Assembly: GCF_057098645.1 (NCBI RefSeq)
Contig: NZ_CM169472.1
Strand: one strand, 5' to 3'
DNA: 64,000 nucleotides
Shown: positions 1-29,289 of the stretch, piece after piece
Numbering within the stretch: position 1 is the stretch's first letter
How the letters are laid out: the number at the start of each line of letters is the position of its first letter
Notes under the pieces: generated by a model
The model's input: the letters and a program-made list of their open reading frames with translations, nothing else
Database searches by the model: none
What the model was told of the DNA's origin: nothing
Translations under genes and position numbers: made by a program

Positions 1-138
1 GATGTTAGTCGCAGCGCTGTTAACCCAAAAAGATAATAACCTGATACATCAACTGTCTGCGCTTTTTGAATTTCACTATCAGCAAGCCCCACAGCAATTA
101 GGGGTAATCTATCAATATTATTTTGAACAAGCAGGAGT

Positions 139-3100
139 ATGTCATTGATGGACGTTCAGCAACTGCATTATGCGCCACTTCTAAATCAGCTTCATCAGCG
201 TGCGGTGAGGTCGGTGGTAAGTCAGTTGGCATTGCGGAGCAAGTCGTTGACTCATTATCTGGAATCACAATATTTTCAGCCTCCCGGTCAGGAGGGGTCA
301 CTGCTTGCAGACCCGGTATTCGAAAGTACATTCGGCTGGATGCCTGCGGATGAAACAATGGAGGATTTGCGGGACAAGCTGATCTCCAGCCCGCTGGTTG
401 ATGCATTGAGCAAAGCGCCAGTGCCATTTCGTCATCAACTTACTGCGTGGCGAACGATTCTGGAAGACAAAAAATCCTTGTTAGTGAGCAGCGGTACGGG
501 ATCCGGGAAAACAGAATGCTTTATGGTACCGGTTCTGGAAGATCTTATTCGTCAGCAAAAATCGACCCGCCAGTCACTAACAGGGACACAAGCTATTTTC
601 TTGTATCCGTTAAATGCATTAATTAACAGCCAACAGGAGCGGCTTCGCGAATGGACGCGCGGATTTAAGGGGAAAATACGCTTCGCGCTATATAATGGCG
701 AAACCCGGCATACCAAATACGAAATTCAGGAAGATCAGTTGAAAGTACCTGAACAAGCTTTGAGTCGGGAAGCCATTTATGAAGCACCACCTTCCATCAT
801 GGTGACGAATACCACCATGCTGGAATATATGCTGATTCGTCGTAAAGATGCCCCAATCATCGAAAAGTCTCAGGGGATGTTAAAGTATATCGTCCTGGAT
901 GAAGCCCATAGTTATATTGGTTCTCAGGCTGCTGAGTTAGCGCTGCTTTTACGTCGTGTTATGCAGGCTTTCAATGTTGGACCCGGCACAGATAAACCTG
1001 TGCAGATTATCGCGACCTCTGCCACTATTGGTGAAGACTCTCCTGAAGGTAATAAGGAGCTTGCTAAATTTGTCGCTGATCTCGCGGGCGTTACAGAACG
1101 TGATGTCAAAGTGGTTCGCGGTTATCGACAAATACCGCGGGTATCGGAGTCGCTGATTCGTCATGAATACCCCACATCTTTAACTTCTCTTAAATCCCTG
1201 AGCCCTCAGGATCTTTACCAACAGCTTTGTCATTACCGTGTGGCCCAGCAATTGCGTCAGGCGTTAACTCATCCCGGACGGCAGGCAGTACGTTTGAGTG
1301 AGTTGCTCAATGTTGCCAGAAGAACCTGGCCAGATATTAATCACCGTGAGCTACTGCAACTCCTCGATCTAATGGCAAGATCGCGAGAAGGTGAACTGGC
1401 TTTTACGCCATTACGTATGCATGGGTTTATCAGAACACTGGCGGGTCTATGGGCATGTTCAAACAAACAATGCTCACATAAAGCACATGAATTAAATCAG
1501 AGTGACTGGCCATTTGGTCAGGTATGGTTTGAGCAGCGCCAATATTGTGACTGTGGAGCGCCGGTATTTGAAGTTTTACGTTGCTCCGGGTGTGGTTCAG
1601 CTTATTTGTCTGCCAAAGAGGAGATGCGCGGTGATGGAACGAACTGGTTGGTAGCGCAACCAGCCGCTGCCGAAGTGGATGAGTTTGCTCTTGATGTAGA
1701 TGTTTATTCTGAAGATGAAGACAACGACGAATTAGACAATAACTCTCAATTTGATCGTCTGATTGCGAGCGATGGTGAAAAATATATCATTTCACTGGAA
1801 GAAACGACGGCGGGGAAAATTGATAGTGAAGCGCAAAAGCACTATGAAATAAACCTGTTAAGACCGGAATCTCGAGGTGAGGGACGCAATAACTCCTTTG
1901 CTTGTGTTTGCTGTGGTGACACTCAACGGAAAAATAATCCTTTATTCCGTCCGCTTCGGCTCGGCGCGCCCTTTTTTTTAAATGAAATTATTCCTACTCT
2001 GCTGGAGTTTTCTCCATTACCGCAAACAAGAGAAGAGCAGTTAGGACCGTTTAATGGTCGACGCTTGCTCACCTTTACGGATTCGCGTCAGGGTACCGCT
2101 CGCATTTCAGCCCGCTTACAGCAGGATGCCGATAAAGCGACGTTGCGAGCTCTTTGTTACCAGGAACTGGCAAATATTACAGAGCCTTCAGCAAAACTCA
2201 GCCCGGCACACTGTGCACTGTTAGAGAAAGTTATTAGCCAGTTTTCTGTCCTCCCTTTAAAAAATTCCATCGACGCGCTGAAAAAAGCGATGGCTGCGAA
2301 TGAGGAGCTTAGCCCGACGGACATTCAGGCACTTAAAATTATTGAGCCGATGGTGAGTTCCTTAAGCACGGAGCATGCTGAAGCGATGCAAATACTTCAG
2401 GCTAACTCTGGCAATCAGCAGAAGAAAACCATGTCATGGCAAACGCTGTCTGAACAGCTGGTTGGCAGTGTGGACCTTGCCGATAGAATGAGAGGCAGTT
2501 TTAAAGAATTGTCTGGGCTTGATCTTACTAAACAACAGTTTGCAGATTTTTGTTTATACAGCGAGTTTGGTCGCCGCCCTAAAAATGCCTGGACCCTCGA
2601 AAGTCTGGGTCTGGTAGCCATTCACTATCCATTCATTGATAAAGTTACAACCTGCCCGCAGGACTGGAAGACATTATTACCCGATCCCGATAAGCAATTA
2701 GCGGAATGGCGTAATTTATTGAAGATTACTCTTGATTTCTTTATCCGTGAAAACAGTGCCGTTTTTTACGAAAACGAGCAATACCCTCGCTGGATGGGGG
2801 CACGTTTCCCGGTAAAAATGCTCCAGGGGCCAGATAAAAAAAACAAAGGGCAGAAACGTGATCAACTTTGGCCACAAATACGCGATCGCCATTATAACCG
2901 GGTCATTAAGCTATTAATCGCAGTCTTTCCGGCAATACAACCTGAGCAGGCTCACTGGAAATCGTTAGTTAACCACTTAATGATTGAGGTCTGGGATGCA
3001 ATTCGACCCTGCTTACGTCAGTTTGAGTCGGGTTATCAGCTGGATATTAAACAACAAGCTGAATTTTACAGTCCAAAGCAAGTGTGGCGTTGCCCCTATA

Positions 3101-6100
3101 CTCGACGTGCGTTAGACGTCACGTTGCTGGGATACTCTCCGTATTTGCCGGGTAGCAAAGAAATTGCACCTGAAAAAGCAGTGTTGATTGAAATGCCTGA
3201 GCTTCCTGTACGTCACTGGCGTTTGTCTGGTGGTGGAGAAATCGCCCGAGAAGAACGTCTGGAGTGGCTGGAAAGTAATGCGCTGATTCAACATGCCCGC
3301 GAGGAAGGATTATGGTCTACTCGCAGCGACCGACTGGCCCTGAAAGATAGCTGGTATCGTCTGGAGGAACACTCTGCGCAGAGAACGCCTGAGCAGAACC
3401 AGTTTAATGAAAAACAATTTAAGTCAGGCAAAGTTAATGTGCTGAACTGTTCCACGACCATGGAGATGGGGGTGGATATTGGTGGTATGAGTTTGGTGGC
3501 AATGAACAACGTTCCTCCAGCGCCGGCAAATTATTTGCAACGTGCAGGTCGCGCGGGGCGTCGTGGAGAGAGTGCATCTGCTGCCATTACGTTATGTAAA
3601 AACACGGCGCATGGAATGGAGGTATTCAAAGACCCCCTCTGGGCGTTCAACACTACTGCCAGTGCGCCACGGGTTCGTTTTGGGAGCAGTAGCATTGTTC
3701 AACGACATGTTAATGCCCAGGTTTTAGGTCTGTTTTTACGAGCTGAAGTTCCTGATGCGACAAAACTGAGTTGCAAATGGTTCTTTGAAGGTGATGAGAG
3801 CCAGTGTCTTCGTTTTCTTCATTGGTTAAATCACCAGGCCGATGAGCTGGCGGATAAACTTAAACGCCTTACTCAGGGAACCGTCCTGATGTCATTGACG
3901 GCAACCCAGCTCTTGACCCGCACACAAGCAATGATGCAGCAGGTTGATATCCGCTGGAGAAGCCAACTTGCGATACTGTTGGAAAATATCGAAGCGTTGA
4001 AGGCGGATAACAGCGCGTGGGAAGAAACGCCAGCAGGTAAAGCCATCGCTTATCAGCTTCGTGATTATCGCGGTGCATATCTGTTTTCTAAACTCATTAG
4101 TGAAGCGTTCCTGCCGGGGCATGGTTTCCCGGTTGGCGTAGTCAATTTCAATTATCTGACGGCAGATGAGCTGGAAAAACGTCGCGCAATAAAAGCCACT
4201 CAGGCTGACCCTAATGAAGGGGGAGAAAGCTTTTCTCGTCGTATTGAAAAATTGCCCAGCCGTGATTTGCCTACAGCATTACGCGAGTATGCGCCTGGTG
4301 CAGATGTGGTATTGGGCGGAAAAGTATATCGTTCCTCGGGCATTATGCTTGGCAAGGTGCTTGCCAGCGGGCAGGAGCTGTCAGGCGATCATCATATTCC
4401 GTGGTTCTGGCATTGCCGTAAATGTGGTGCGGGGGCAACCAGTACTACCCATCCTGTCGAATGTAGTCACTGCAAAGCGGATATACAGCAACTTGATGTG
4501 AAGCGTTATTTACAGCCTGTTGGTTTTGCGACAGATATTCGTTATCAGGCACATAATGATGTATCCATGCCTGCACAACTTCCCTGGAAAGATCCACGTG
4601 TTCTTGTACCGTCTTCGGTGTGGGTTTCTTTACCCGATGCTGGGCTAGGACGTTACCGTTTTAGCCATAGTGGGGAATTGTTCCACTTCAGTGAAGGGGA
4701 ATTTGGGCACGGCTACGCAATTTGCCTCTCATGTGGTCGGGCAGAATCTCAAACTCAACCCCAGCGTACCCCTGAAAATCTAAAGAACCCAGAGCGGGAA
4801 AATACGCATTACCTGTTGCGAGGGGGCAGTAACGATCGTCAGGGGAGCAATAAATTGTGCCACGGTCATGTGCATAAAGATCTGTGGTTGGGGTATAGCA
4901 GTCGTACAGATATGGTTGAGCTGCAACTTAATGATGATAATGGCCTGTTGATCCGTGATGAGGTTGCCGCGCGTTCCCTTGCGGTCGCTTTGCGTGAAGG
5001 GTTAGCGCATAAATTGGGTATCGAAAATACTGAGCTGGGCGTGACGACGCAGCAAGCGCGCGATATCAATGGCTATACCGGATATTCCATCTTCATATAC
5101 GACAATAATGCGGGTGGTGCAGGTTATGCAGTGCAATTGATCGACCATTGGGCTGATGTCTTTAATTACGCCAGAAAATTGCTCGATTGCAGTTGCGATA
5201 AATTTTGTCACCACTGCTTGCTCAGCTACGACAGTCAGCATTATGTCAACAGATTAGATCGTCACCATGCATTAACCCTGCTTACCAATGTACGGTTGCA
5301 GCGACTTAACCTCGCGCCAGAATATCAGTACTTCGGCGATGGTAGCCGGGTTGAAACTAACCCTCTGAGTTTACGTATTGCGCAATGCCTGAACAGCGAG
5401 ATTTATGACTCCTGCTCGCTGGTTCTTGCGGGGCCGCAGGAACAGTGGGACTTTGCCCAATGGCCATTATTTAAAGAGTTGCTCCAGTTTGCCTCCTCCG
5501 GTGGGAATGTTGAGTTGCTGGTGGCCACGCCGCTGGAAAACTTAACTGATAGCTCCAGACATCAGCTTTCCGCGTTGGCGGCGATGCCGGGAGGACGCTT
5601 ACAAGTGAAATCCATTGCCACTGCGCAACTCATGCAAGGAAAGGGGCGCTGGCTTGCGCAGGTGACTCGCGAAGGGCAAAGCCAACAGTGGGCCGCAGAC
5701 GACAGCGCTACCGTTGCCCCTGGTGAATTATGGGGACAAAGTGCGTCTTCACCAGTAGTGACACTTAAAGGAACGTCCGGAAAAACCTTCTCGGGTCAGA
5801 CCTTAAGTGCAGAAGATTTACTGCCCGCCTTACCCACCGGGGCGGTGCGCATCAATCTCTGTGAACAACTGGACGGGCCGCTGGAAGGTTTTGGTTCGCG
5901 TTTCTGGTCGTTAGTCACGCAACAGCACGCTGGCTGGAAGCAGGCATTTACCCGCCACAAAGAGATAACGCATGTTGAGTACAGCGATCGTTATCTTAAT
6001 AGCCCATTCACGGCGCGTTTGTTAGGTGAAATCTTAACCGAGCTGGTTGAACAGGGAATGGCGGAACGCGCCAGCCTCACTGTTTGCGTCAAAAAATTGG

Positions 6101-6462
6101 ATTACAACTCTCGCCAACACGACGCTCTCTATAACGCGTGGCTTAATGAGGAAGATCGTCAGCAGGTTGTGACCACTTTACTTGAAGAAGGATATCTGGG
6201 GCCTGCGTGGCCGGGAGCAATTAGCTGGTTAACGGGGGATAACCAGAGTACGGAGCATGGACGAGAACTGACAGTCACCTTCAGCGATGGCAGTCAGCAT
6301 TATGTCCTGCTCGACATGGGGCTTAGCTACTGGCGCTGTATTGAAGATACCTTCTTTGATTTTGCCCTGCGAGTACCGCAGCAAGTTGAACGGCTGGCAA
6401 ACACGCGAGCGCGAGCTGTTGCCCCGGGTAATGACCTTAGGAGTTATATTATCGCTGGATAA
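139..6462 (+). CDS. Giant SF2 DEAD/DEAH-box helicase fused to a DUF1998-like Zn-binding domain (DrmA-DrmB / DruE-like), 2107 aa
   Basis: 6324-nt ORF; AGGAG RBS at 129-133 five nt before ATG 139; upstream frame closed by stops. Walker A SGTGSGKTE, motif II VLDEAHSY, SAT motif, helicase-C QRAGRAGRRG. Downstream Cys clusters CRKCG...CSHC, CLSCG, CSCDKFCHHC typical of DUF1998. Confidence 0.85.
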   Translation: MSLMDVQQLHYAPLLNQLHQRAVRSVVSQLALRSKSLTHYLESQYFQPPGQEGSLLADPVFESTFGWMPADETMEDLRDKLISSPLVDALSKAPVPFRHQLTAWRTILEDKKSLLVSSGTGSGKTECFMVPVLEDLIRQQKSTRQSLTGTQAIFLYPLNALINSQQERLREWTRGFKGKIRFALYNGETRHTKYEIQEDQLKVPEQALSREAIYEAPPSIMVTNTTMLEYMLIRRKDAPIIEKSQGMLKYIVLDEAHSYIGSQAAELALLLRRVMQAFNVGPGTDKPVQIIATSATIGEDSPEGNKELAKFVADLAGVTERDVKVVRGYRQIPRVSESLIRHEYPTSLTSLKSLSPQDLYQQLCHYRVAQQLRQALTHPGRQAVRLSELLNVARRTWPDINHRELLQLLDLMARSREGELAFTPLRMHGFIRTLAGLWACSNKQCSHKAHELNQSDWPFGQVWFEQRQYCDCGAPVFEVLRCSGCGSAYLSAKEEMRGDGTNWLVAQPAAAEVDEFALDVDVYSEDEDNDELDNNSQFDRLIASDGEKYIISLEETTAGKIDSEAQKHYEINLLRPESRGEGRNNSFACVCCGDTQRKNNPLFRPLRLGAPFFLNEIIPTLLEFSPLPQTREEQLGPFNGRRLLTFTDSRQGTARISARLQQDADKATLRALCYQELANITEPSAKLSPAHCALLEKVISQFSVLPLKNSIDALKKAMAANEELSPTDIQALKIIEPMVSSLSTEHAEAMQILQANSGNQQKKTMSWQTLSEQLVGSVDLADRMRGSFKELSGLDLTKQQFADFCLYSEFGRRPKNAWTLESLGLVAIHYPFIDKVTTCPQDWKTLLPDPDKQLAEWRNLLKITLDFFIRENSAVFYENEQYPRWMGARFPVKMLQGPDKKNKGQKRDQLWPQIRDRHYNRVIKLLIAVFPAIQPEQAHWKSLVNHLMIEVWDAIRPCLRQFESGYQLDIKQQAEFYSPKQVWRCPYTRRALDVTLLGYSPYLPGSKEIAPEKAVLIEMPELPVRHWRLSGGGEIAREERLEWLESNALIQHAREEGLWSTRSDRLALKDSWYRLEEHSAQRTPEQNQFNEKQFKSGKVNVLNCSTTMEMGVDIGGMSLVAMNNVPPAPANYLQRAGRAGRRGESASAAITLCKNTAHGMEVFKDPLWAFNTTASAPRVRFGSSSIVQRHVNAQVLGLFLRAEVPDATKLSCKWFFEGDESQCLRFLHWLNHQADELADKLKRLTQGTVLMSLTATQLLTRTQAMMQQVDIRWRSQLAILLENIEALKADNSAWEETPAGKAIAYQLRDYRGAYLFSKLISEAFLPGHGFPVGVVNFNYLTADELEKRRAIKATQADPNEGGESFSRRIEKLPSRDLPTALREYAPGADVVLGGKVYRSSGIMLGKVLASGQELSGDHHIPWFWHCRKCGAGATSTTHPVECSHCKADIQQLDVKRYLQPVGFATDIRYQAHNDVSMPAQLPWKDPRVLVPSSVWVSLPDAGLGRYRFSHSGELFHFSEGEFGHGYAICLSCGRAESQTQPQRTPENLKNPERENTHYLLRGGSNDRQGSNKLCHGHVHKDLWLGYSSRTDMVELQLNDDNGLLIRDEVAARSLAVALREGLAHKLGIENTELGVTTQQARDINGYTGYSIFIYDNNAGGAGYAVQLIDHWADVFNYARKLLDCSCDKFCHHCLLSYDSQHYVNRLDRHHALTLLTNVRLQRLNLAPEYQYFGDGSRVETNPLSLRIAQCLNSEIYDSCSLVLAGPQEQWDFAQWPLFKELLQFASSGGNVELLVATPLENLTDSSRHQLSALAAMPGGRLQVKSIATAQLMQGKGRWLAQVTREGQSQQWAADDSATVAPGELWGQSASSPVVTLKGTSGKTFSGQTLSAEDLLPALPTGAVRINLCEQLDGPLEGFGSRFWSLVTQQHAGWKQAFTRHKEITHVEYSDRYLNSPFTARLLGEILTELVEQGMAERASLTVCVKKLDYNSRQHDALYNAWLNEEDRQQVVTTLLEEGYLGPAWPGAISWLTGDNQSTEHGRELTVTFSDGSQHYVLLDMGLSYWRCIEDTFFDFALRVPQQVERLANTRARAVAPGNDLRSYIIAG

Positions 6463-6469
6463 ATAATTG

Positions 6470-6496
6470 CTCCCCTGGGGATATCTTCCAGGGGAG
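6470..6496 (+). terminator. Stem-loop immediately after gene 1 stop (stem ctcccctgg / ccaggggag); possible terminator or RNA-stabilising hairpin
   Basis: 9-bp perfect inverted repeat with 9-nt loop starting 8 nt after the TAA at 6460-6462; no immediate U-tract. Confidence 0.3.
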
Positions 6497-6581
6497 TTGA
6501 CCCAGCTCACTTTTTAATAATTTTTGTTTGAAAATCATGCGCAATTTATGCGCATTCCCTCCCATTTTGTCACTTTGCCGG

Positions 6582-6617
6582 GGGCCTTCATGATATCTTT
6601 AAGGCCCTCTTTTTTAT
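6582..6617 (+). terminator. Candidate intrinsic terminator between gene 1 and gene 2
   Basis: gggcc...ggccc 5-bp stem with 16-nt loop followed by tcttttttat; weak stem and long loop. Confidence 0.3.
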
Positions 6618-6685
6618 CGCAGTGTGCCGCGCCACATTTTTCAGGATGACGTTACCGCCACTGCCCCAAATAGACAGAAAAACCG

Positions 6686-9544
6686 ATGAATAAGCAAAAT
6701 TATGCACCTGGTATGCGGGTGGTTATTCGTGATGCCGAATGGCGTATTCGCCGGGCGGATGACAGTGGTGATGGTGGGTATTTGCTGACCTGCGATGGTA
6801 TTTCAGAGCTTGTGCGCGGTAAAGAAGGGTTATTTCTGACCAAACTGGAACAAAAAGTAGAGATCCTGGATCCCGCAAAAACGCATTTGGTGGAAGATGA
6901 ATCCGCCAATTATCAAGCGGCGCAGTTGTATATCGAAAGTCAGTTACGCCAACGCGTACCGACAGACAGTAAAGTCCATTTTGGTCATCTGGCGGCGATG
7001 GATTCCATGCCGTTTCAGCTCGATCCTACGCGGATGGCGCTGGCACAACCGCGTCAGCGGATACTCATTGCCGACGCTGTCGGTCTGGGTAAAACGCTGG
7101 AAGCGGGTATTCTGGTTTCGGAGCTGATCCGTCGTGGGCGCGGAAAACGTATTCTGGTTCTGGCGGTCAAATCGATGCTGACACAATTCCAGAAGGAGTT
7201 CTGGAGCCGTTTTGCGATCCCATTGACCCGCCTGGATTCTGCTGGTTTACAAAAGGTGCGTAACCGCATCCCAACCAACCACAACCCGTTCCACTATTTT
7301 GACAAGACCATTATCTCCATCGATACGCTGAAACAAGACATTGAATATCGTCACCATCTGGAAAATGCCTGGTGGGATATTATTGTCATTGATGAGGCCC
7401 ATAACGTCGCAGAACGTGGAACCAGTTCGTTACGCAGTAAACTGGCAAAACTGCTCGCCGGGCGTAGCGATACGCTGATTATGCTTTCAGCAACGCCGCA
7501 TGATGGTAAGGCTGAAAGTTTTGCCAGCCTGATGAACATGCTTGACCCGACGGCGATCGCCAACCCGAAAGAGTATGAATACGCCGACTTTGCCGATAAA
7601 AATCTGGTTGTCCGTCGCTTCAAAAAAGACGTGAAAGATCAGATGTCCGGCGAGTTCCCCGAGCGCAATATTGTCAAATTGACTCGCCTGGCATCCGGTG
7701 CCGAAGAAGAAGCATACCGTCGTCTGGTTGAGAGCCAGTTCCGTGATGATGACGATGAACAGGCCCAGTCTAACAAAGGTCGTCTGTTCAAGATAACCCT
7801 CGAAAAAGCGCTATTTTCCAGCCCGATGGCGTGTGCCAGCGTCGTGGCGAATCGTCTGAAGCGTCTTGAGAGCCGTAAAGATCATAATAGCCAGAGCCAG
7901 ATCAACGAACTGGAGTCATTGCTGTTGGCGCTGAATAACATTGATGCCAGCCAGTTTAGCAAATACCAGTTGCTGCTCGACACCATCCGAAAAGACCTCG
8001 CCTGGAAAGCCAATAACACGGAAGATCGCCTGGTGATCTTCACCGAAAGTATTAAAACGCTGGAGTTCCTCGAACAGCAACTGCGAGCGGATCTGAAATT
8101 GAAAGATGACCAGATCGCCACGCTGCGCGGCGATCAGGGCGATACGGTATTGATGGAAACCGTAGAAGCCTTTGGTAAAACGCAGTCGCCGTTGCGTCTT
8201 CTGGTTTGTTCGGATGTGGCATCTGAAGGGATCAACTTGCATCACCTTAGCCACAAAATGATTCACTTTGATATTCCGTGGTCGTTGATGGTATTCCAGC
8301 AACGTAACGGGCGTATTGACCGCTATGGGCAAAAACATCAGCCCCAAATCCGCTATCTGCTTACTGAGGCCAGCGAACCACAGATCAATGGCGATATGCG
8401 CGTACTGGAAGTGTTGATCAACAAAGACGAACAGGCGCAGAAGAACATTGGGGACAGTTCGGAGTTTACCGGCAAATTTACCCAGGAAGAGGAAGAAGAG
8501 CAGGTTGCAGAGTTCATGATGCAGGATGATGGTGCCAGCCTGTTTGATCAACTGCTGAACAGCAACGTCTCGGAAAGCGCCGAACACGATCTGTTTGGCG
8601 AAATATGCAGTGCGGTTTCCAGCGATGCCTCAATGGTCACCGAAGCAGACACCAGCTTGTTTGCCAGCGAACAGGCGTACTGCGAAAGAGCATTGGGTTA
8701 CCTGAAAGCCAGTGGTCAAACTATCCAGTATGAAACCTTGCCTGATAATACCTTGTCGCTGGTGGCACCGGAGGAGTTACGCCGCCGCTTCAACCAGCTA
8801 CCGCCTGAAATCGCCCCGGAGAACTGGCAGCTCTATTTAAGTCAGGATAAAACCGTCATCACCGACGCGATTGCACGCGCTCGCGGTGAGCAACATGCCT
8901 GGCCCGATGTGCAGTATCTCTGGCAAATCAACCCGGTAGTGCAGTGGCTGGACGATAAAATCTCTTCGGCTTTTGGTCGTCATCAGGCACCAGTTATCCG
9001 TCTGCCATACCTGCTTGAACCCGATGAAGATCACTTCATTCTTTCCGGGTTATTCCCGAACCGTAAATCACATCCGATGGTGAACCCGTGGATAGTGGTG
9101 AGCTTTAACCGTGAATCGCTAATCGGCAGTCAGCCATTCGCTGAGTTTTTACAACGTCATCCGCAGTTGAGTAACAAGCTGACTAACAGCGGCGGTAAAG
9201 ATCGTAATCACCAACGCCAGCAGGATTTACTTGAAGCGGCTATTGCTCATGCCCGGGAGGTATTCATCCATGATCGGAATGCGTTTGAAACGCACATTAA
9301 CCAGCAACTGAATGAGCATCTGCAAAAGCTGGACGTTTTGCGTGGGCGGCAGTTGAGCCAACTTGAGCTGGATTTTGCCGATAATAAACAGCAATTGTCA
9401 GTCAAGCAGAGCCGTAAAGAGCAGAGACAACGCGAAATCGAACACAATTTTGACAGCTATATCGAATGGATTGAGGACACCATGACGACTGAAAAAGAAC
9501 CCTACATTCAGGTAATTGCTGTTATCACCGGAGCGGAGGGTTAA
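6686..9544 (+). CDS. SNF2-family (SF2) helicase/ATPase, DISARM DrmD-like, 952 aa
   Basis: 2859-nt ORF. Motif I DAVGLGKTLEAG, motif II IVIDEAHNV, LSATP, C-terminal FQQRNGRIDRYGQK characteristic of SNF2/RAD54-type ATPases. Confidence 0.85.
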   Translation: MNKQNYAPGMRVVIRDAEWRIRRADDSGDGGYLLTCDGISELVRGKEGLFLTKLEQKVEILDPAKTHLVEDESANYQAAQLYIESQLRQRVPTDSKVHFGHLAAMDSMPFQLDPTRMALAQPRQRILIADAVGLGKTLEAGILVSELIRRGRGKRILVLAVKSMLTQFQKEFWSRFAIPLTRLDSAGLQKVRNRIPTNHNPFHYFDKTIISIDTLKQDIEYRHHLENAWWDIIVIDEAHNVAERGTSSLRSKLAKLLAGRSDTLIMLSATPHDGKAESFASLMNMLDPTAIANPKEYEYADFADKNLVVRRFKKDVKDQMSGEFPERNIVKLTRLASGAEEEAYRRLVESQFRDDDDEQAQSNKGRLFKITLEKALFSSPMACASVVANRLKRLESRKDHNSQSQINELESLLLALNNIDASQFSKYQLLLDTIRKDLAWKANNTEDRLVIFTESIKTLEFLEQQLRADLKLKDDQIATLRGDQGDTVLMETVEAFGKTQSPLRLLVCSDVASEGINLHHLSHKMIHFDIPWSLMVFQQRNGRIDRYGQKHQPQIRYLLTEASEPQINGDMRVLEVLINKDEQAQKNIGDSSEFTGKFTQEEEEEQVAEFMMQDDGASLFDQLLNSNVSESAEHDLFGEICSAVSSDASMVTEADTSLFASEQAYCERALGYLKASGQTIQYETLPDNTLSLVAPEELRRRFNQLPPEIAPENWQLYLSQDKTVITDAIARARGEQHAWPDVQYLWQINPVVQWLDDKISSAFGRHQAPVIRLPYLLEPDEDHFILSGLFPNRKSHPMVNPWIVVSFNRESLIGSQPFAEFLQRHPQLSNKLTNSGGKDRNHQRQQDLLEAAIAHAREVFIHDRNAFETHINQQLNEHLQKLDVLRGRQLSQLELDFADNKQQLSVKQSRKEQRQREIEHNFDSYIEWIEDTMTTEKEPYIQVIAVITGAEG

Positions 9545-9546
9545 TC

Positions 9547-14457: not shown

Positions 14458-17400
14458 TGCTGCCGTCCGTTGTCAGTCGGCAGGTCGCCGACAGCGTTGC
14501 CGCCTTTTTACGGGCGGCGTTCCCGCTAAACAGCCCGCTGTTTAACGGTGAGAATAACGATAATGTCTCAATGCTGGAGCAATTTCTGGCCCAGCCCGAA
14601 ACGCTGCTGAAAGGACCATACCTTTCCGCCCAGTTGCCGTTTCGTAAAAGTGACTTACCACTGAATTTCTTCCCTAATCTGACGCTGCCGTTCCCGCCGC
14701 ACGCGCATCAGGCCCGGGCATTTCAGCGTCTGGGAAGCGACGCGCCACAGCCGACACTGGTCGCTACCGGTACCGGCTCCGGTAAAACAGAATGCTTTAT
14801 GTTCCCGCTGCTCAACCACTGCGCGGGCGCGTCACATGCCGGGGTTAAAGCGATTATCATCTACCCGATGAACGCCCTGGCAACCGATCAGGCCAGCCGT
14901 TTCGCCAAAACCATCGCCAGCGATCCACAACTGCATGGCAAGGTGACCGTCGGCTTGTTTGTCGGCGACAGCGAAATCGAACCCAGCAAGAAAATGTCGG
15001 CAGAAAAGGTCATTACCTGCAAGCACACGCTGCGCGAAAGCCCGCCGGACATCCTGTTGACCAACTACAAAATGCTCGACTACCTGCTGATGCGCCCTGG
15101 CGATCAGCCGCTCTGGCGTTACAACCAGCCCGGTTCATTGCGTTACCTGGTCGTGGATGAATTGCATACGTTTGATGGCGCGCAAGGGTCGGATCTGGCC
15201 TGTCTGGTGCGACGTCTGAAGCATCACATAGGTGTGGATAACCAACGATTCGCCTGCGTCGGGACATCAGCTACCGTCGGCGACGAACTGGGGCAACTGC
15301 TCGATTACGCAAAAACAATCTTTGACCAGCCGTTTACCGATGACGCCGTTATTCGCGAAGATCGCTACACGGCAGCGGAGTACTTGCAGGATTATGCCAT
15401 TGCGTACAGTCAGTATCCGGGGCCGGAGGCCGCTTCGGCCCTGGACCCGCAGAGTTACTCTACCCCGGTAGCGTATCTCAACGGGCAAATCCCTTTGTGG
15501 TTCCCCGACAGCGATTTGCAACTCCCGGACGATCTGGAGAGCGACGACGGGCGTGAAAAGCGTATTGCGCTGGGGTCACTGTTACGCCGCCACAGCGTGA
15601 TGCATGTCTTACTCCATGATCTGCAAGGCGGGATCCTCTCTGAGCGAGAGTGTCTGGAAAATCTCCAGGTCATGCTGGCAGAAAGCGCCGACCATGCCCG
15701 ACGCGTGCTGCAAAGCATTCTGGCGCTGATCGCGCAGGCACGTCTCGAAGTACCGGAAACGGAACACGATCGTCAAAAACGTCTCCAGGCGAAGAAAGCG
15801 CGTCCGGTGCTGCCGTTTGTGCAACTGCGCTCCCAGTTGTGGCTTCGTGAGATGCGTCGTCTGGTCGCCAGCGTGGCGAAAACGCCGCGACTGGTGTTTG
15901 CCGATGATGTGGCGGTGGAAGACCGCGAACACTATTTGCCGGTTATCCACTGCCGTGACTGCCATGCAACCGGCTGGGCCAGCCTGCGTCATGGGCAAAG
16001 CGTTCAGCTGGAAACAGACCTCGACGGCATTTATCGCCAGTTCTTTGAAAAAGGGCGCTCCATCGTCCTCGCTTTCCCGGATAATAACGAAAAAGCGGTC
16101 AGTGGCGCACACCAGAAACTGTGTCCTACCTGTCTGAAACTTAACCGACAGTCCAGCGTCCAGTGTGGACATTGCGGTCATACGGAACTGTTGCAGGTAC
16201 TGATCCCGGATATGCTCAAAGAGCGTAAGGACGAGCTGGAGTTTGCTAATGAATGCCCGTACTGCAACAGCAAACAGGGGATTTCGATCCTGGGGTCACG
16301 GGCTGCCAGTCTGTCGGCGGTGATGATTCACCAGCTTTATGGCAGCCAGTTCAACGAACATAAAAAGCTGATTACGTTTTCTGACTCGGTACAAGACGCC
16401 GCGCATCGTGCCAGCTTCTTTACTGCCCGAACCTGGCCGCTGATGATTCGTGGGCAAATCGCCAGTGTTCTTGGCGAAAAAGAGACATTACCGCTGGATG
16501 CGTTCGCGGCGCGTGTTTGCCAACAAACGCGTGAACGTTCACCGGACGATGCTCATTTTGCAGCGAACTTCATCGCACCAAATATGCAGTGGCTGAATGA
16601 TTATCAGACGCTGAAAAATGAAGGCAAACTGGCGGAGAACTCCGATCTGCCGGAGCTGGTTTCCCTGCGCCTCGACTGGGAGGTGTACAGCGAATTTACC
16701 CTGCGCGCGCGTATCGGACGTACGCTGGAAGCCACCGGTTATGCCGTTGCCGGAGTGGATAAAGATCGCTTTAATCCGGCAATTACCGCCCTGCATCAAC
16801 AGCTTTGTGAAGAGCTGGGTGATGAGATGTCCGGTGTGAGCGTCGAGCAGGTAGCGCACCTGGCGCTGGGGGTTATCTGGTATCAACGCCAGGCCGGGGC
16901 CGTTATGCATCCGGCGTTCGAAAGTTATCGCCGTGATGGCACGACCTTTATGATGACGCAAAAAGAGCGTACATCGCGCTATATGCCTTCTATCGGTCCG
17001 AAAACGCGTAAACCGGCTTATGCGTCGTTTGAAAAAATTAATGGTTTCCATCGCCTGATTGGCGCGAAGTCTAACCCCAGTTGGTATCAGCATTGGATCA
17101 ATCGCACGCTGAGTAACGGCAATAATCTGTTTATCAGTAGCGTTGCGGAAACAGTGTTACGACGCCTGTTTACGGCGTTGAAAATAGCCGGAGTAGTAAA
17201 AGATTTTGACACCAAAGGGCGTGAAGCCTGGGGACTGGTGCCTTCGGCGCTGGTGGTGAGCCGTGACGTCGTTCAGCTTAATTGCTCATGTTGCCGTGAG
17301 GTTGTCCGGGCTCCGGCCGATCAAGGCTGGCAGTGGCGTAATGCGCCTTGTCTCTCTTTACGTTGTGAAGGTCGTTACCTAGAAGTCGACAATATGGCGA

Positions 17401-20400
17401 CCTGGCGTTGGGAGAACATGGACATCGCGCGCGTGCAGGGCGCAGAACACACGGGGCTGCTTAGCCGTGAAGATCGCGAAGCCACCGAAAAATCGTTCTA
17501 CCGCGGCAACCAACCGTGGAATATCAACCTGTTGTCGGCAACACCGACGCTGGAGATGGGTATTGACGTTGGGGATCTTTCCACCGTTTTACTCTGTTCT
17601 GTCCCACCTGCTCAGGCCAACTACTTGCAACGTATTGGTCGCGCCGGTCGTAAAGATGGTAACGCGTTAAACATTACCGTGGCAGAAGGGAACCCGCACG
17701 ATCAGTTTTTCTTTGAAGAACCACTGGAGATGATGCAGGGCCAGGTGCAGGCTCCTGGCGTCTTCCTCAATGCAACGGCTATTCTCGAACGCCAGCTGGC
17801 AGCTTTTTGTATGGATAACTGGGTGAAAACCGGTGTACCAGAATCCGCTATCTGTAAAAACGTCAAACAGATGCTGGATGAGCTGGAGTTCGGGCGTAAA
17901 TCGGGTTTTCCGTATAACTTACTGCGATATATCGAACAGCATCATGCGGAGATTGCTGCGCAATTTACGGCAATCTTCCCCGATCTTGCCGCAGAAACTC
18001 GCCAACAGCTGTTGTCTTATCTTCAGGGCGCGCCAGGACAACGCTCGCTGGTGCAGCGTATCGAAGAAGCGTTAAAACTGCTGGTGGAAGATCGCAAATC
18101 TTTGCGCTCACGCATCGATAAACTCAAGCGCAGTATCGATAAACTGGAGAACGCGCCGCGCGATCAAAACTTTGATAGCGATATGCGCGAGTTAACTTCG
18201 GAACGGCAGGCGCTGATGGCGCTGGTCAATCAAATCAACAATAAGCAAACGCTGAATTTCCTCACGGATGAAGGTCTGCTGCCTAACTACGCCTTCCCGG
18301 AAGCCGGTATTACGTTACGTTCTGTGCTCTGGCGGCGTAAAGAAGGCGGGGAAGCACGTGAATATCAAAACACCACTTTCGAATATGAACGCCCGGCATC
18401 AACGGCGCTGGCTGAGCTGGCTCCGCTGAATAATTTCTATGCCGGTGGGCATAAAGTTGAAATTGAGCAGATAGACCTGAAGGTCTCTGAGCCGGAGAAC
18501 TGGCGTATCTGTAGCCACTGTAACTACAGCGAAAATATCGACCAGACGGGCGACCAGCATAAATATTGCCCGAAATGTGGCACACCGGGGTGGGCCGATG
18601 CCGGACAAAAAACCACGCTGCTGAAACTTCGCCAGGTTTATGCCCGCGCCAGCGCACGTGATAGCCAGATCAGCGACGAGAGCGACAGCCGTGAACCTGC
18701 TTTCTTCCAGCGTCAGCTATTGGTTAGTTTCGAAAAAGAAGATGTATCGGCGGCATACGCGATTGAGGAAGGCGAAGTTCCGTTTGGTTTTGAATTTTTA
18801 AGCAAAGTCACCCTGCGGGATATCAACTTCGGCAAAATGGCGGATGATGCCAATGAGTTGATGATTGCCGGAGAAGCGAAGAAGCGAACCGGGTTTAAAG
18901 TTTGCCTCGGGTGCGGCATGGTGCAGCGTCCTCGCGATCATGAACCACGTCATGATTTGAGCTGCAAATATCGCACGGAACCGGAAAAGGCGAAGTTCGA
19001 AGATTATCTCTACCTCTATCGCCAGCTGGAGTCAGAAGCGTTGCGTATTCTGCTCCCGGTAAGCAGTTACAGTAATGACCGTGTCGTGGAGGCTTCTCTT
19101 GGGGCGGCGATCCAGCTCGGTCTTAAACATTACTTCAAGGGGAATGTCGATCACCTGAAAGGCGTTGTGTACCGCGAGCCGGAAAATGAAGGCGAATCCT
19201 GGCGGCAGTATCTGGTGATTTACGATACCGTCCCGGGGGGGACTGGTTCTCTTAAAGAACTGATGCGCACTCCCGACAATTTGCTGAAATTACTTGAACT
19301 GGCCTATCAGGCAATAGTGGAATGCAGTTGCAACAATGATACGCATAAAGATGGTTGTTATCGTTGCGTTTACGCTTACCGTGACCGTGGGCGCATGAAG
19401 TATGTCTCCCGCGATCAGGCGCGTCTCTTGCTGGCGAAAATTTTGCAGGCAAGAGATTCGATACGGGTAATTGATTCCATCAAAAACATTTCCCTCGAAG
19501 CCATGATGGGCAGTGAGCTGGAAAAACGGTTTATTAGCTGCCTGCAAGAAAATAAAAACCTGATTGTCAGTCGCAGTTACGCGCATCAGGGCGCTGGGTG
19601 GATTATTAACACCCGCAGCGAACCGATGATGAGCTGGCATCTTAAAGCTCAGGTGGATTTAGGCGCTAAAGAGGCGGTGGGGATCCCTTGTCGCCCGGAT
19701 TACGTGCTATATCCGCTTATGCAGTCTGATGCCATTAAACCGGTGGTTATTTTCCTTGATGGCTTTGCGTTCCACAAAAATAGCGTCGCAGAGGATGTGC
19801 AAAAACGCCAGGCGATTCGGGATAGCGGTAATTTCTGGGTGTGGACAGTCACGTGGGCCGATCTCAAAGAGCCTGGGCTTAAACATGTTCAGGATGTCCT
19901 GGGACTTGGGCATAACCCGGATATGAAACAGCCTAAGTTTTATAACCTGTTTCATGATACCAACTTTGCGGCCCTTGAAGCGTCGTTCCGGGAACGCAAC
20001 AGTTTTGCACTGCTGCTGGATTATCTCGCCGATCCGGGCGGAAGAACGCAGTTATGGCAGAGAATGGCTGCTGCACATGCCTGGGTGTGGTTGGATGTGA
20101 AGAAGTCACAGGACGCGGGAACGAAACAAAAGTATGCCTATGAAATGCAGGAAAACGCGCCAGCCTGGCGGCTAGCAGAGCTTTTGCCAGACGAACCGTT
20201 TGTCTTTGGTGGTTTACTCGATAGCTGTAACTCATCGCAGCAATTTATTGAGCTGGCTTCGGTGTTGCCACAACAAGCCATTAAACCGACGACCAGCGTC
20301 GCACAAATGCGCAGCTGGCTGCGTTTGCATATCTGTTTTGACGATCGCTATACGCAGGATGACGGTTATGAAGCGGGACTCAATGGCTTCTGGCGACTGG

Positions 20401-20798
20401 TAAACCTGTTACAGTTCCTGCCGGATATGACCTTTACCAGCCGTAAAGCCGTGCATTTACCGCAGGAAAGCGTTGACACTAAAGTTTCGGCAACGCCAGA
20501 GGCAGTACCAGAGACTGATGAGAGTTGGGCTGAGATTATTGAGTTTGGCTTATTAAGCGCTGAAGAGATCGCGTTGCTTCAGTCTCATTCTCTCTCTGCG
20601 CCGACTCTCGGCTACGAATTGCAAAATGATGAAGGTGAAATTATTGCGGAAGCCGATCTCGCCTGGCCATCACAAAAATGGGCATTGATTATTGATAATC
20701 AAGAATTTATTCCATTATTCACAACCAGGGGTTGGCACGTTGCATTCGGGCCAATTGACGAAAATACATTGCAACATCTGTCCGGAGGTGACAAATGA
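14457..20798 (+). CDS. Second giant SF2 DEAH helicase-DUF1998-like fusion, paralogous to gene 1, with a C-terminal DUF559/Vsr-like PD-(D/E)xK nuclease-like motif, 2113 aa
   Basis: Start overlaps gene 3 stop (TGATG); AAGGAGAG RBS. Walker A TGTGSGKTE, motif II VVDELHTF, TSAT, QRIGRAGRKDG. Cys clusters CSHC...CPKCG, CLGCG, CSCNND...CYRC. C-terminal RPDYVLYP...VVIFLDGFAFH...KRQAIRDSGNFWVWTVTW. Confidence 0.85.
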   Translation: MLPSVVSRQVADSVAAFLRAAFPLNSPLFNGENNDNVSMLEQFLAQPETLLKGPYLSAQLPFRKSDLPLNFFPNLTLPFPPHAHQARAFQRLGSDAPQPTLVATGTGSGKTECFMFPLLNHCAGASHAGVKAIIIYPMNALATDQASRFAKTIASDPQLHGKVTVGLFVGDSEIEPSKKMSAEKVITCKHTLRESPPDILLTNYKMLDYLLMRPGDQPLWRYNQPGSLRYLVVDELHTFDGAQGSDLACLVRRLKHHIGVDNQRFACVGTSATVGDELGQLLDYAKTIFDQPFTDDAVIREDRYTAAEYLQDYAIAYSQYPGPEAASALDPQSYSTPVAYLNGQIPLWFPDSDLQLPDDLESDDGREKRIALGSLLRRHSVMHVLLHDLQGGILSERECLENLQVMLAESADHARRVLQSILALIAQARLEVPETEHDRQKRLQAKKARPVLPFVQLRSQLWLREMRRLVASVAKTPRLVFADDVAVEDREHYLPVIHCRDCHATGWASLRHGQSVQLETDLDGIYRQFFEKGRSIVLAFPDNNEKAVSGAHQKLCPTCLKLNRQSSVQCGHCGHTELLQVLIPDMLKERKDELEFANECPYCNSKQGISILGSRAASLSAVMIHQLYGSQFNEHKKLITFSDSVQDAAHRASFFTARTWPLMIRGQIASVLGEKETLPLDAFAARVCQQTRERSPDDAHFAANFIAPNMQWLNDYQTLKNEGKLAENSDLPELVSLRLDWEVYSEFTLRARIGRTLEATGYAVAGVDKDRFNPAITALHQQLCEELGDEMSGVSVEQVAHLALGVIWYQRQAGAVMHPAFESYRRDGTTFMMTQKERTSRYMPSIGPKTRKPAYASFEKINGFHRLIGAKSNPSWYQHWINRTLSNGNNLFISSVAETVLRRLFTALKIAGVVKDFDTKGREAWGLVPSALVVSRDVVQLNCSCCREVVRAPADQGWQWRNAPCLSLRCEGRYLEVDNMATWRWENMDIARVQGAEHTGLLSREDREATEKSFYRGNQPWNINLLSATPTLEMGIDVGDLSTVLLCSVPPAQANYLQRIGRAGRKDGNALNITVAEGNPHDQFFFEEPLEMMQGQVQAPGVFLNATAILERQLAAFCMDNWVKTGVPESAICKNVKQMLDELEFGRKSGFPYNLLRYIEQHHAEIAAQFTAIFPDLAAETRQQLLSYLQGAPGQRSLVQRIEEALKLLVEDRKSLRSRIDKLKRSIDKLENAPRDQNFDSDMRELTSERQALMALVNQINNKQTLNFLTDEGLLPNYAFPEAGITLRSVLWRRKEGGEAREYQNTTFEYERPASTALAELAPLNNFYAGGHKVEIEQIDLKVSEPENWRICSHCNYSENIDQTGDQHKYCPKCGTPGWADAGQKTTLLKLRQVYARASARDSQISDESDSREPAFFQRQLLVSFEKEDVSAAYAIEEGEVPFGFEFLSKVTLRDINFGKMADDANELMIAGEAKKRTGFKVCLGCGMVQRPRDHEPRHDLSCKYRTEPEKAKFEDYLYLYRQLESEALRILLPVSSYSNDRVVEASLGAAIQLGLKHYFKGNVDHLKGVVYREPENEGESWRQYLVIYDTVPGGTGSLKELMRTPDNLLKLLELAYQAIVECSCNNDTHKDGCYRCVYAYRDRGRMKYVSRDQARLLLAKILQARDSIRVIDSIKNISLEAMMGSELEKRFISCLQENKNLIVSRSYAHQGAGWIINTRSEPMMSWHLKAQVDLGAKEAVGIPCRPDYVLYPLMQSDAIKPVVIFLDGFAFHKNSVAEDVQKRQAIRDSGNFWVWTVTWADLKEPGLKHVQDVLGLGHNPDMKQPKFYNLFHDTNFAALEASFRERNSFALLLDYLADPGGRTQLWQRMAAAHAWVWLDVKKSQDAGTKQKYAYEMQENAPAWRLAELLPDEPFVFGGLLDSCNSSQQFIELASVLPQQAIKPTTSVAQMRSWLRLHICFDDRYTQDDGYEAGLNGFWRLVNLLQFLPDMTFTSRKAVHLPQESVDTKVSATPEAVPETDESWAEIIEFGLLSAEEIALLQSHSLSAPTLGYELQNDEGEIIAEADLAWPSQKWALIIDNQEFIPLFTTRGWHVAFGPIDENTLQHLSGGDK

Positions 20799-22909
20799 CG
20801 GTGCAAACGCCCAAGGTGGCACTTTCTGATGGTTTTCTGGGCGCATTCGCGCGGATCCCAAAGGCACAGCAAAAAAAGGTGCAGGAATTCATCTCCAAAT
20901 TCCGTCAGGACCCGACCAGTAATGGACTTAACTATGAAAAGATCCACGATGCGCGCAGTAAAAATGTCCATTCGGTGCGAATCGATCAAACTTATCGCGG
21001 CATTGTTCTGAAACCTGAACAGGGTGCCCTGTATATGCTGATGTGGGTGGATAAACACGACGAAGCATACGACTGGGCGCGGCGGCATGATTGTTCGATT
21101 CACCCGGTTACCGGCGCGATTCAGGTCATTGATATTAGCTATATCAAACCGGCACCGGAAGCGGTGGTTGATAAACCGAAACTCTTCGCGGCTTACAGCG
21201 CGGAACAGATTCTGGCCCTGGGCGTGCCGCCTGTCTTTATTGATCAGGTGATGGCGCTTACCGATGAAGCCGGGCTTAATCAACTTGAAAGCATAATGCC
21301 AGCAGAAGCCTGGGAACCTCTGCACTGGCTGGCAGAAGGGCTGGATTACCAGGAAGTGCTGGAAGAGTTTAACGATCATCATGATGAGCCTGTTGATACC
21401 AACGACTTTATGGAGGCGATTGAACGAAGTAAACGTCGCTTCCATGTCGTTGAAAATGAACAGGAGCTGTTGCAGATGCTTAATGCGCCTTTAGAAAAAT
21501 GGCGTGTATTTCTGCATCCGAGCCAGCGAAAACTGGTGGAGTCGCCCGCTAATGGTCCGGTACGAGTACTGGGCGGTGCAGGTACAGGGAAAACGGTTGT
21601 TGCGATGCACCGTGCGCGGTGGTTATCTCAGCGTCTGGCAGATAAACCCGGTAAGAAGGTACTTTTCACGACCTTTACGCGTAACCTGGCGGCAGATATT
21701 CGCGCTAATCTCCAGCGGTTGTGTACGCGAGAAGAGATGGCGCGTATTGACGTCGTTAACATTGATGCCTGGATGAGCGACCAACTAAAACGCCACGGTT
21801 ATGATTTCCGCGTGGTATACGACAGCGATGAAGGGCGACGCAAATGCTGGAACTATGCCTTGCAGCAGGCACCTGCCGAACTGGGGCTACCTGACAATTT
21901 CTATGCTGAAGAGTGGCAACGCGTTGTCCAGCCAAATGCGGTTTACACCCGGGAGGAATACCTCAAAGTCAGCCGGGTTGGACGTGGTACAGCGTTATCC
22001 CGTATTCAACGGGCGAAAATCTGGCCAGTCTTTGAAGAATTCAGAGCACAAATGGCGCGTGCCAAACTGCGCGAAATGGGCGATGCCATGCATGAGGCTA
22101 TTGTTCTGTTTAAAGAAAAACAGGTTCAACTACCTTATAGCAGTATTGTGGTCGATGAAGCTCAAGATATCGGTGCCCCGGCATTTACTCTTATTCGCAG
22201 CCTGGTTCCCGAGTCGCCCAACGATCTGTTTATTGTCGGGGATGGGCATCAGCGTATTTATCGCAATAAGGTCGTTCTTGGTCAGTGTGGTATTAACGTC
22301 CGTGGTCGTCGCAGTAAAAAATTGAAGATTAACTATCGGACCACAGAAGAGACGCGTCAATTTGCTGTTGGGCTGTTAACTGGTGTGAAGGTTGATAACC
22401 TCGATGGCGAAGCGGATACCAGTAATGATTATTTGTCATTACTGCACGGGGAAAAGCCCATGATTACGCATGCGGCAGATTTCAAAGAAGAGGCTGCAAC
22501 GCTCGTCAAGCAAATTCAGGCATTGCTGGCGAATCAGGTTCGTTCTCAGGATATCTGCATTACTGCGCGTACTAAACATGCTTGTGACCGCTACGCATCA
22601 GCACTGAATGACGCCGGAATTGAGACATTTAATTTAGGCAATGATAGCGGTGACAGCGATGCACGCCCTGGCGTGCGGGTTGCAACGATGCACCGTATTA
22701 AAGGGCTTGAGTTCCAGTATGTGTTCCTGGTGGGGATTAACGAAGGCGTTGTGCCGGAAATAAAAGCATTAGCATCCGATGATCCCGTTGAACAGCGTGA
22801 TGCATTATTTAATGAGCGCGCGTTACTGCATGTGGCTGCAACCCGTGCCGTAAAAGGGCTGTTTGTTTCATCATCTGGTGTCCCTAGTCCGCTATTAGTG
22901 GCTGACTGA
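20795..22909 (+). CDS. SF1 UvrD/PcrA-like helicase with N-terminal ~230-aa domain of unknown function, 704 aa
   Basis: ATGA start/stop overlap with gene 4; GGAGGTGA RBS. Walker A GGAGTGKT, motif II VVDEAQDIG, VGDGHQRIY, NYRTT, HRIKGLEFQYVFLVG, AATRAVKGL. Confidence 0.85.
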   Translation: MTVQTPKVALSDGFLGAFARIPKAQQKKVQEFISKFRQDPTSNGLNYEKIHDARSKNVHSVRIDQTYRGIVLKPEQGALYMLMWVDKHDEAYDWARRHDCSIHPVTGAIQVIDISYIKPAPEAVVDKPKLFAAYSAEQILALGVPPVFIDQVMALTDEAGLNQLESIMPAEAWEPLHWLAEGLDYQEVLEEFNDHHDEPVDTNDFMEAIERSKRRFHVVENEQELLQMLNAPLEKWRVFLHPSQRKLVESPANGPVRVLGGAGTGKTVVAMHRARWLSQRLADKPGKKVLFTTFTRNLAADIRANLQRLCTREEMARIDVVNIDAWMSDQLKRHGYDFRVVYDSDEGRRKCWNYALQQAPAELGLPDNFYAEEWQRVVQPNAVYTREEYLKVSRVGRGTALSRIQRAKIWPVFEEFRAQMARAKLREMGDAMHEAIVLFKEKQVQLPYSSIVVDEAQDIGAPAFTLIRSLVPESPNDLFIVGDGHQRIYRNKVVLGQCGINVRGRRSKKLKINYRTTEETRQFAVGLLTGVKVDNLDGEADTSNDYLSLLHGEKPMITHAADFKEEAATLVKQIQALLANQVRSQDICITARTKHACDRYASALNDAGIETFNLGNDSGDSDARPGVRVATMHRIKGLEFQYVFLVGINEGVVPEIKALASDDPVEQRDALFNERALLHVAATRAVKGLFVSSSGVPSPLLVAD

Positions 22910-28093: not shown

Positions 28094-29289
<1,196 letters not shown>

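Follow-up and report, generated by a model that had tools for sequence, protein, structure and literature searches.

The window that we have analysed, a stretch of 64,000 nucleotides (RefSeq assembly GCF_057098645.1, contig NZ_CM169472.1), begins with five very large genes, all of them on the plus strand (Table 1). The first is druE, the second gene of the two-gene anti-phage system Druantia type III-A, and the other four are, by sequence, armABCD, the genes of an ARMADA type II system. An earlier reading of the same DNA, made from the letters and the open reading frames (ORFs) alone (hereafter the sequence-only reading), had taken the five genes as one candidate defence system that it did not recognise as described. 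The coordinates and lengths that it gave were reproduced exactly by the ORF list, and five ORFs of 700-2100 aa on one strand over 22.8 kb cannot be the product of chance.

Table 1. Features of the druE-armABCD region (positions in nucleotides of the window; aa, amino acids)
Feature	Position	Strand	Length (aa)	Description
druH 3' end	1-148	+	1119	Druantia III partner; remainder upstream of the window
druE	148-6462	+	2104 (2107 for the ORF 139-6462)	Druantia type III-A YprA-like DExH helicase; MZB/DUF1998 nt 4981-5220
druE-armA spacer	6463-6685	+		three hairpin/palindrome elements
armA	6686-9544	+	952	SNF2/RapA/BrxHII-like helicase; Walker A K136, Walker B D236
armB	9547-14457	+	1636	PglX/type IIG-like N6-adenine methyltransferase; GxG G605; NPPW aa 971-974, nt 12457-12468
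armB hypervariable cassette	12844-13926	+		aa ~1100-1460; candidate target-recognition domain
armC	14457-20798	+	2113	YprA-like DExH helicase; K110, D234; MZB/DUF1998 nt 19101-19370
armC C-terminal parts	~19554-19871; 20520-20687	+		predicted Vsr-type nuclease; ZorE-like tail
armD	20795-22909	+	704	RelE-fold N-terminal domain nt 20813-21133; UvrD/GajB-like SF1 helicase nt 21515-22873; K266, D454
hairpin, 10-bp	22926-22951	+		GACCAGGAGC-CGAAAC-GCTCCTGGTC, read from sequence; directly 3' of the armD stop, operon end

The junctions within armABCD are very tight. As the sequence-only reading had noted, armA and armB are separated by two nucleotides (TAA-TC-ATG), armB and armC overlap by one (TGATG) and armC and armD by four (ATGA), and its description of genes 2-5 as a single tightly coupled operon stands. 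The claim that each gene has a strong ribosome binding site holds for four of the five; the exception is armA, in whose upstream sequence (..GACAGAAAAACCGATG) a Shine-Dalgarno is not obvious. The frame of gene 1 is open from position 139, but the start of druE is probably the ATG at 148, which shortens the protein by three residues. This start is the one called by PGAP, is preceded by an AGGAG at 133-137 and is overlapped by the stop codon of druH (146-148) as TGATG. The hairpin at the end of the operon is not followed by a run of T and was not flagged by a terminator scan.

Gene 1 matches the DruE3 model of PADLOC at full length (2182 bits, aa 9-2105), and its product is 99.9% identical to the DruE of E. 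coli O157:H7 strain 86-24. All of its 2104 residues (aa 1-2104) align, with 4897 bits, to the chain of the PDB entries 9TU7-9TUC, which are cryo-electron microscopy structures of the DruE of EDL933 (10.64898/2026.05.13.724758). The partner gene is found directly upstream in E. coli O145 RM9872, where an STY4851/ECs_5259-family protein of 1119 aa matches the PADLOC model DruH3 at full length (2555 bits). The last base of this coding sequence corresponds to position 148 of the window, and for this reason only the druE half of Druantia III lies inside it. Pfam identifies DEAD, Helicase_C and MZB (PF09369, formerly DUF1998) domains in gene 1. The two PLD-like domains at the C terminus of DruE were not detected by Pfam, and their existence rests on the published structure (10.64898/2026.05.13.724758). 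The same work describes DruE as a dimeric 3'-to-5' DNA helicase that binds single-stranded DNA (ssDNA) and not ssRNA, and that requires the MZB domain for unwinding. The PLD-like domains proved dispensable, reproducible nuclease activity was not detected, and deletion of druE left fliC and motility unaffected (10.64898/2026.05.13.724758). Preprints from 2026 present the helicase as ssDNA-dependent and state that DruE, together with DruH, clears phages by engaging replication or recombination intermediates that contain ssDNA.

ARMADA II was described by Bell et al. (September 2025, PMC12458937) as a strict four-gene array that includes a BrxHII/SNF2-like helicase, a PglX-like methyltransferase and a YprA-like helicase bearing a Vsr-type nuclease at its C terminus. 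Genes 2-5 follow the order SNF2/BrxHII-like, PglX-like, YprA-like, GajB-like. Within them, the YprA-like helicase carries an MZB/DUF1998 domain and a C-terminal Vsr-type PD-(D/E)xK nuclease that is predicted to be active, and a RelE-like domain lies N-terminal to the GajB-like UvrD helicase. Bell et al. cloned armABCD of O157:H7 NCTC 12900 and found all four genes essential for a defence that is direct and non-abortive; of the motifs probed with their eight point mutants, the ATPase and NPPW motifs were needed (PMC12458937). All eight of the mutated residues are in place here with the same numbers: K136 (GLGKT) and D236 (DEAH) in ArmA, K110 (GSGKT) and D234 (DELH) in ArmC, K266 (GTGKT) and D454 (DEAQ) in ArmD, and N971 (NPPW) and G605 (MGSAAF) in ArmB. 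Protein identities to O157:H7, computed against strain 86-24, are 99.9% for ArmA, 88.6% for ArmB, 99.5% for ArmC and 99.6% for ArmD, and the value for ArmC implies a place in the YprA tree within the ARMADA II clade.

The domain calls of the sequence-only reading (an SNF2 helicase in gene 2, DUF1998 helicases in genes 1 and 4, a UvrD helicase in gene 5) were borne out by Pfam. ArmA matches SNF2-rel_dom (1.7e-15) and Helicase_C, and its other matches include BrxHII in PADLOC (201 bits) and RapA in the PDB (105 bits). In ArmB the NPPW motif occurs once, at aa 971, and Eco57I, MmeI_Mtase and N6_Mtase give split matches, in agreement with the methylase that had been claimed for gene 3. In ArmC the domains are DEAD, Helicase_C and MZB (aa 1549-1638), so the helicase-DUF1998 fusions proposed for genes 1 and 4 are real, but the DEAH label is not exact for gene 4, as the Walker B of ArmC reads DELH. 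ArmC is a remote paralogue of DruE, with 23-34% identity across the helicase and MZB regions. The nuclease motif of ArmC (CRPD-YV ... IFLDGFAFH ... EDVQKR ... TWAD) shows no variation, or almost none, in the alignment of homologues. UvrD-helicase and UvrD_C cover aa 241-693 of ArmD, and in its RelE fold Y47, E48, R62, R68 and H88 are invariant. There is indeed no separate DrmC-like PLD gene, but a nuclease is not missing: ArmC has a fused, predicted Vsr-type nuclease, and DruE has two fused PLD-like domains. No solved structure of any ARMADA protein was found among the PDB matches of the four proteins.

The last ~60 residues of the ArmC tail (aa 2022-2077) resemble the C-terminal tail of ZorE (positions 5104-6207 of the RM9872 locus), with 40% identity over 57 aa (E 2e-8). 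A ZorE-like tail is common to two neighbouring systems, ARMADA II and Zorya II, that are reported to synergise, and it may be a shared interaction module or a degenerate Vsr-like one. More distant relatives of the array were also seen. One ARMADA-like locus (L014 1-18625) has an extra SACS/NOV_C gene of 1662 aa between ArmB and ArmC, with a P4-like primase, AlpA and an integrase nearby; another (L015 10001-18613) has ArmC-ArmD with no ArmA or ArmB adjacent, and a PIN toxin pair and a helicase plus DprA-like pair upstream. Two short ArmD-like matches (P0049 and P0113) come from decayed, fragmented loci and are poor evidence of gene order.

The chromosomal slot is also known. The first 23.5 kb of the window are 99.97% identical to E. 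coli O145 RM9872, the differences being six substitutions and a single indel of 2 bp. This is the tRNA-Leu (leuX) island, which occupies the slot from leuX to nanS and is known in EDL933 as O-island 172 (z5897-z5902), where ARMADA II has been studied (Li et al. 2025, 10.1101/2025.09.22.677730). In RM9872 the order is ahr, leuX, a hypothetical gene, a phosphorothioate-binding HNH endonuclease, zorE/zorB2/zorA2 on the opposite strand, the STY4851/ECs_5259-family gene, the five genes, a transposase remnant, a truncated nanS, nanM, nanC and fimB. A search of 5426 complete E. coli genomes found the island in 556, and 514 of these cover at least 80% of it. Druantia III, like ARMADA II, was tested in E. 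coli O157:H7 in 2025-26, and phage resistance has been shown for the ARMADA II systems of O157:H7 and ATCC 8739. The locus is a defence island, as the sequence-only reading had it. The Pfam and PADLOC searches that it had proposed as a check returned DruE3 of Druantia III and the domains of ARMADA II. The combination that it had thought undescribed is catalogued, in exactly this gene order, as ARMADA type II and in O-island 172, which is an outcome that it had itself named as refuting its proposal.

Taken together, these observations make us confident that the region holds two adjacent and separately functional anti-phage systems, Druantia III-A (druE) and ARMADA II (armABCD), and not the single five-gene system that had been proposed, given that gene 1 pairs with druH outside the window and genes 2-5 are ARMADA II. 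A way to weigh the single-system alternative, an obligate machine of DruE and ArmABCD with two paralogous DUF1998 helicases, is to look at what separates druE from armA. The 223-bp spacer is strongly structured (RNA fold -66.3 kcal/mol, z = -3.0 against shuffles) and contains a 12-bp hairpin (6469-6497), a perfect 7-bp palindrome (ATGCGCA-N5-TGCGCAT, 6537-6555) and, ~65 nt before the armA ATG, a terminator-like GC hairpin followed by a U-run (6580-6620). Such terminator-like elements speak against one unit. A pattern scan of the spacer flagged only another, smaller hairpin (6494-6508) and two weak promoter-like sites. On either side of the spacer, druH-druE and armB-C-D are each translationally coupled internally, and druH, which DruE requires for its function, lies upstream and is joined to druE by the TGATG.

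The two systems also come apart in nature and in the laboratory. On the 84-kb plasmid pPSJ-12_1 (L010 6115-24634) armABCD is intact beside a druE truncated by IS91, while druH and Zorya are absent, so ARMADA II moves and persists without Druantia III; its armB is the window allele in the 120-bp cassette segment tested. A distant chromosome has ArmB-(extra gene)-ArmC-ArmD, with no DruE called within the 26-kb locus. Druantia III and ARMADA II each defend when cloned or left alone (PMC12458937; 10.64898/2026.05.13.724758), and these single-system deletions and clones largely refute an obligate unit. Some observations do weigh against two separate systems. No convincing armA promoter appeared in the pattern scan, and armABCD could be transcribed by read-through from druHE. 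Moreover, the strong synergy published for Druantia III and ARMADA II and their co-occurrence in 514 of the 5426 genomes indicate that they are not functionally independent in vivo. These same points, with the shared direction of all five genes and the speculation that the dispensable PLD domains of DruE mediate cross-talk (10.64898/2026.05.13.724758), are what a five-gene machine has in its favour, and we consider it very improbable.

The island itself is already known, but the sequence of ArmB offers a lead on how ARMADA discriminates phage. The protein is 98-100% identical to its O157:H7 counterpart up to aa ~1000 and again after ~1460, and only 28-80% identical in between; its low overall identity is explained by the cassette at aa ~1100-1460 being another allele. 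Among eight E. coli ArmB alleles, pairwise identities are 98.5-99.8% over aa 1-1000 and 97-99% over aa 1461-1636, against 42-82% over aa 1001-1460, with a mosaic pattern in two sub-blocks (~1100-1290 and ~1340-1440). The full cassette of the window occurs in 30 of 507 genomes that match armB. The variable region directly follows the NPPW motif, and in enzymes of the PglX/BrxX type the target-recognition domain is at the equivalent place (PMC12839542). The cassette is thus probably a target-recognition domain, and its mosaic exchange between near-identical flanks points to selection on sequence specificity. In contrast, the N-terminal ~530 aa (window 9547-11226, aa 1-560) are far better conserved than the cassette, being 47-60% identical across diverse bacteria of many environments, and have no Pfam assignment. 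No relative of ArmB with a solved structure was found, either with the single sequence at E up to 10 or with a profile of 40 sequences over the N-terminal 560 aa. On variation in armB, Li et al. note only that it is less conserved in non-pathogenic strains (10.1101/2025.09.22.677730).

The single indel between the window and RM9872 falls within this cassette. The CT at 13151-13152 of the window (L001 25150) is missing in all 20 complete O145 genomes retrieved, which shifts the frame of armB at aa 1202 and leaves a predicted product of 1211 aa; in RM9872 PGAP annotates the gene as a pseudogene. The same allele is intact in the window and in 14 non-O145 genomes. Since ArmB is essential for defence (PMC12458937), the O145 strains with the frameshift are probably ARMADA-null. 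Neither ARMADA paper mentions the frameshift, and both count O145:H28 as a carrier of the system (PMC12458937; 10.1101/2025.09.22.677730). In all 20 genomes armA, armC and armD are intact beside the broken armB, and ArmACD are therefore not self-toxic when the methylase is lost, a tolerance that resembles BREX and is unlike the behaviour of classical restriction-modification. In RM13514 (O145:H28) the armB cassette is split into two matches at different places, the break in the query lying at position ~364, which suggests a further interruption of armB in this strain.

We tentatively propose a mechanism in which ArmB marks self and ArmC cuts. ArmB would use its variable cassette to recognise a short DNA motif and would N6-methylate host adenines as the self mark, and it would also be required for attack, as PglX is in BREX. 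On unmarked DNA, ArmB and the SNF2-type translocase ArmA would license ArmC, whose YprA-type helicase would unwind the invader and whose fused Vsr-type PD-(D/E)xK nuclease would cut it. ArmD would be an essential accessory, involved in DNA-end processing or in coupling to RNA or the ribosome. The Vsr-type fold of ArmC with its invariant catalytic-type motif and the RelE fold of ArmD with its invariant residues are consistent with these roles. The mosaic cassette 3' of the NPPW between near-identical flanks and the 20 O145 genomes with armA, armC and armD intact beside a frameshifted armB point the same way.

Several observations weigh against this mechanism. No ArmB-dependent methylation motif has been reported, and our literature search for one was unproductive. 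The lack of reproducible nuclease activity in DruE and the dispensability of its PLD domains mean that nuclease domains fused to this helicase family need not be the effector. The cassette of the window is only 60% identical to the O157:H7 allele (aa 1001-1460), and the activity of the window allele is putative. Finally, Li et al. anticipate structure-specific, and not sequence-specific, recognition (10.1101/2025.09.22.677730). This last view is the main rival: ARMADA would sense DNA structure (ssDNA overhangs, replication forks) and ArmB would not be self-marking. The broad phage range fits such sensing, as does the recognition of ssDNA-containing substrates by DruE and by DrmAB of DISARM (10.64898/2026.05.13.724758), and the G605A mutant of the SAM site retains part of the activity (PMC12458937). 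We find it somewhat less likely than self-marking, given that the ArmB cassette is swapped by recombination between genes otherwise 99% identical, the signature of selection on sequence specificity, that N971A in the NPPW abolishes defence (PMC12458937), and that a 2026 review places ARMADA among the modification-based systems.

In a second alternative, ArmB would be a classical type IIG or ISP-like restriction enzyme that cuts unmethylated sites with the helicases as helpers. PADLOC does match its REase_MTase_IIG model almost end to end (931 bits over aa 98-1550), the cassette is of the target-recognition type, and the conserved N-terminal region of 530 aa has no assigned function. However, sequence searches found no nuclease domain in ArmB, the Pfam scan covering the residues beyond aa 400; all four genes are essential (PMC12458937), and the nuclease that is predicted to be active sits in ArmC. 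The type IIG label appears to reflect the methylase plus recognition architecture, and this alternative is improbable. Returning to self-marking by ArmB, a broader form of the idea, to which we give similarly guarded credence, is that ARMADA II is a sequence-programmed epigenetic system in which the swappable ArmB cassette would set the specificity, lineages would carry different "self" marks and the EHEC lineage O145:H28 would be a natural ARMADA-null. If so, the window strain and O145, with the same allele intact and frameshifted, would already provide an isogenic pair with which to identify the motif and explain differences in phage sensitivity among lineages.

What had been presumed an undescribed system is a rediscovery of ARMADA II, with half of a Druantia III system beside it, and the main value of the result is negative. 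What interest remains concerns the mechanism of ARMADA and two leads that go beyond the ARMADA papers, the variable cassette of ArmB and the frameshifted O145 allele, both inexpensive starting points for the question of how self is told from phage. The island is also of direct relevance to phage therapy and to the biocontrol of Shiga-toxin E. coli.

Between leuX and druH, the RM9872 locus (L001 1-12148) has Zorya II (zorA2B2E), divergent from druH, as well as the HNH restriction endonuclease that binds phosphorothioated DNA and a nanM fragment. On the 3' side of armD (window 22910-25410) there are the remnant of a transposase gene, with a frameshift (~23583-24278), and a nanS that is truncated (~24815-25381). 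A search for another copy of the leuX 3' end (attR) found none in the window or in the RM9872 locus, so the island looks immobilised. An ISKpn26 element (IS5 family, 326-aa transposase) lies at ~28094-29285 between nanC and fimB, is not in O145 RM9872 and could affect how the adjacent fimB is expressed; strain JMF1 has the identical junction but not the defence island. Rfam detected no RNA family in 1-30 kb of the window. From 30000 to 64000 the window holds ordinary E. coli core genes (fimE through fimH, gntP, uxuAB-uxuR, yjiC, iraD, hypT, iadA, kptA, yjiJ, yjiLMN), including iatD, an inverse autotransporter of 1746 aa at 50553-55793.

The comparison with known systems starts with DISARM, since the sequence-only reading had seen kinship to both DISARM and Druantia. 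The kinship is real, and the same "missing link" argument is behind the name ARMADA given by Bell et al. Like class 1 DISARM, the array combines a large N6-adenine methylase with two helicases, one SNF2-like and one of the YprA type that carries DUF1998. A class 1 variant with DrmA and DrmB fused and DrmC lost could moreover point to DrmD as the best PADLOC match of gene 2 (333 bits), to DrmMI on gene 3 (up to 191 bits, N-terminal region included) and to a weak DrmA on gene 4. We give it next to no credence and reject DISARM, in line with the sequence-only reading, which had found the architecture atypical. The DrmD score (349.9 bits) is below the curated NCBIfam cut-off (NF038317, 610), gene 4 matches DruE models with 347 bits against 49 for DrmA, and the published tree sets ArmC closer to Druantia than to DISARM (PMC12458937). 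Instead of separate, adjacent DrmA and DrmB genes, helicase and MZB share one ORF of 2113 aa. There is no ORF for a DrmC/PLD gene in 1-23 kb, nor a DrmC/PLD match in Pfam or among the PADLOC families listed (the best 25 per protein); the predicted nuclease here is Vsr-type and fused, where DISARM has a PLD gene of its own, and an extra RelE-UvrD gene is present.

BREX, MADS and Gabija gave marginal matches at the domain level and were rejected as assignments. For BREX, the PglX models of NCBIfam score 25-28 bits against cut-offs of 500-900, and no BrxA, BrxB, BrxC or PglZ gene is present. The likeness is one of layout: ArmB has the PglX-like succession of a long N-terminal region, an N6-methyltransferase core, a variable recognition region and a conserved C terminus, ArmA is BrxHII-like, and the methylase is needed for defence while its loss is tolerated. 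In the case of Gabija, the helicase core of ArmD matches GajB models (2.6e-36), but there is no GajA, and the RelE-fold N-terminal domain of ArmD is not found in GajB. The agreement is of another order for the Druantia III-A systems of E. coli EDL933, ATCC 8739 and ECOR19, which have the same druH directly 5' with the TGATG overlap. Gene 1 matches the solved EDL933 chain from end to end, with no substantive difference beyond the window holding only the last 148 nt of druH. Similarly, the ARMADA II systems of O157:H7 NCTC 12900, EDL933 (z5899-z5902) and ATCC 8739 share the gene order, the coupling, the lengths (952, ~1640, 2113 and 704 aa) and the catalytic residue numbers. [quoted passage not shown]

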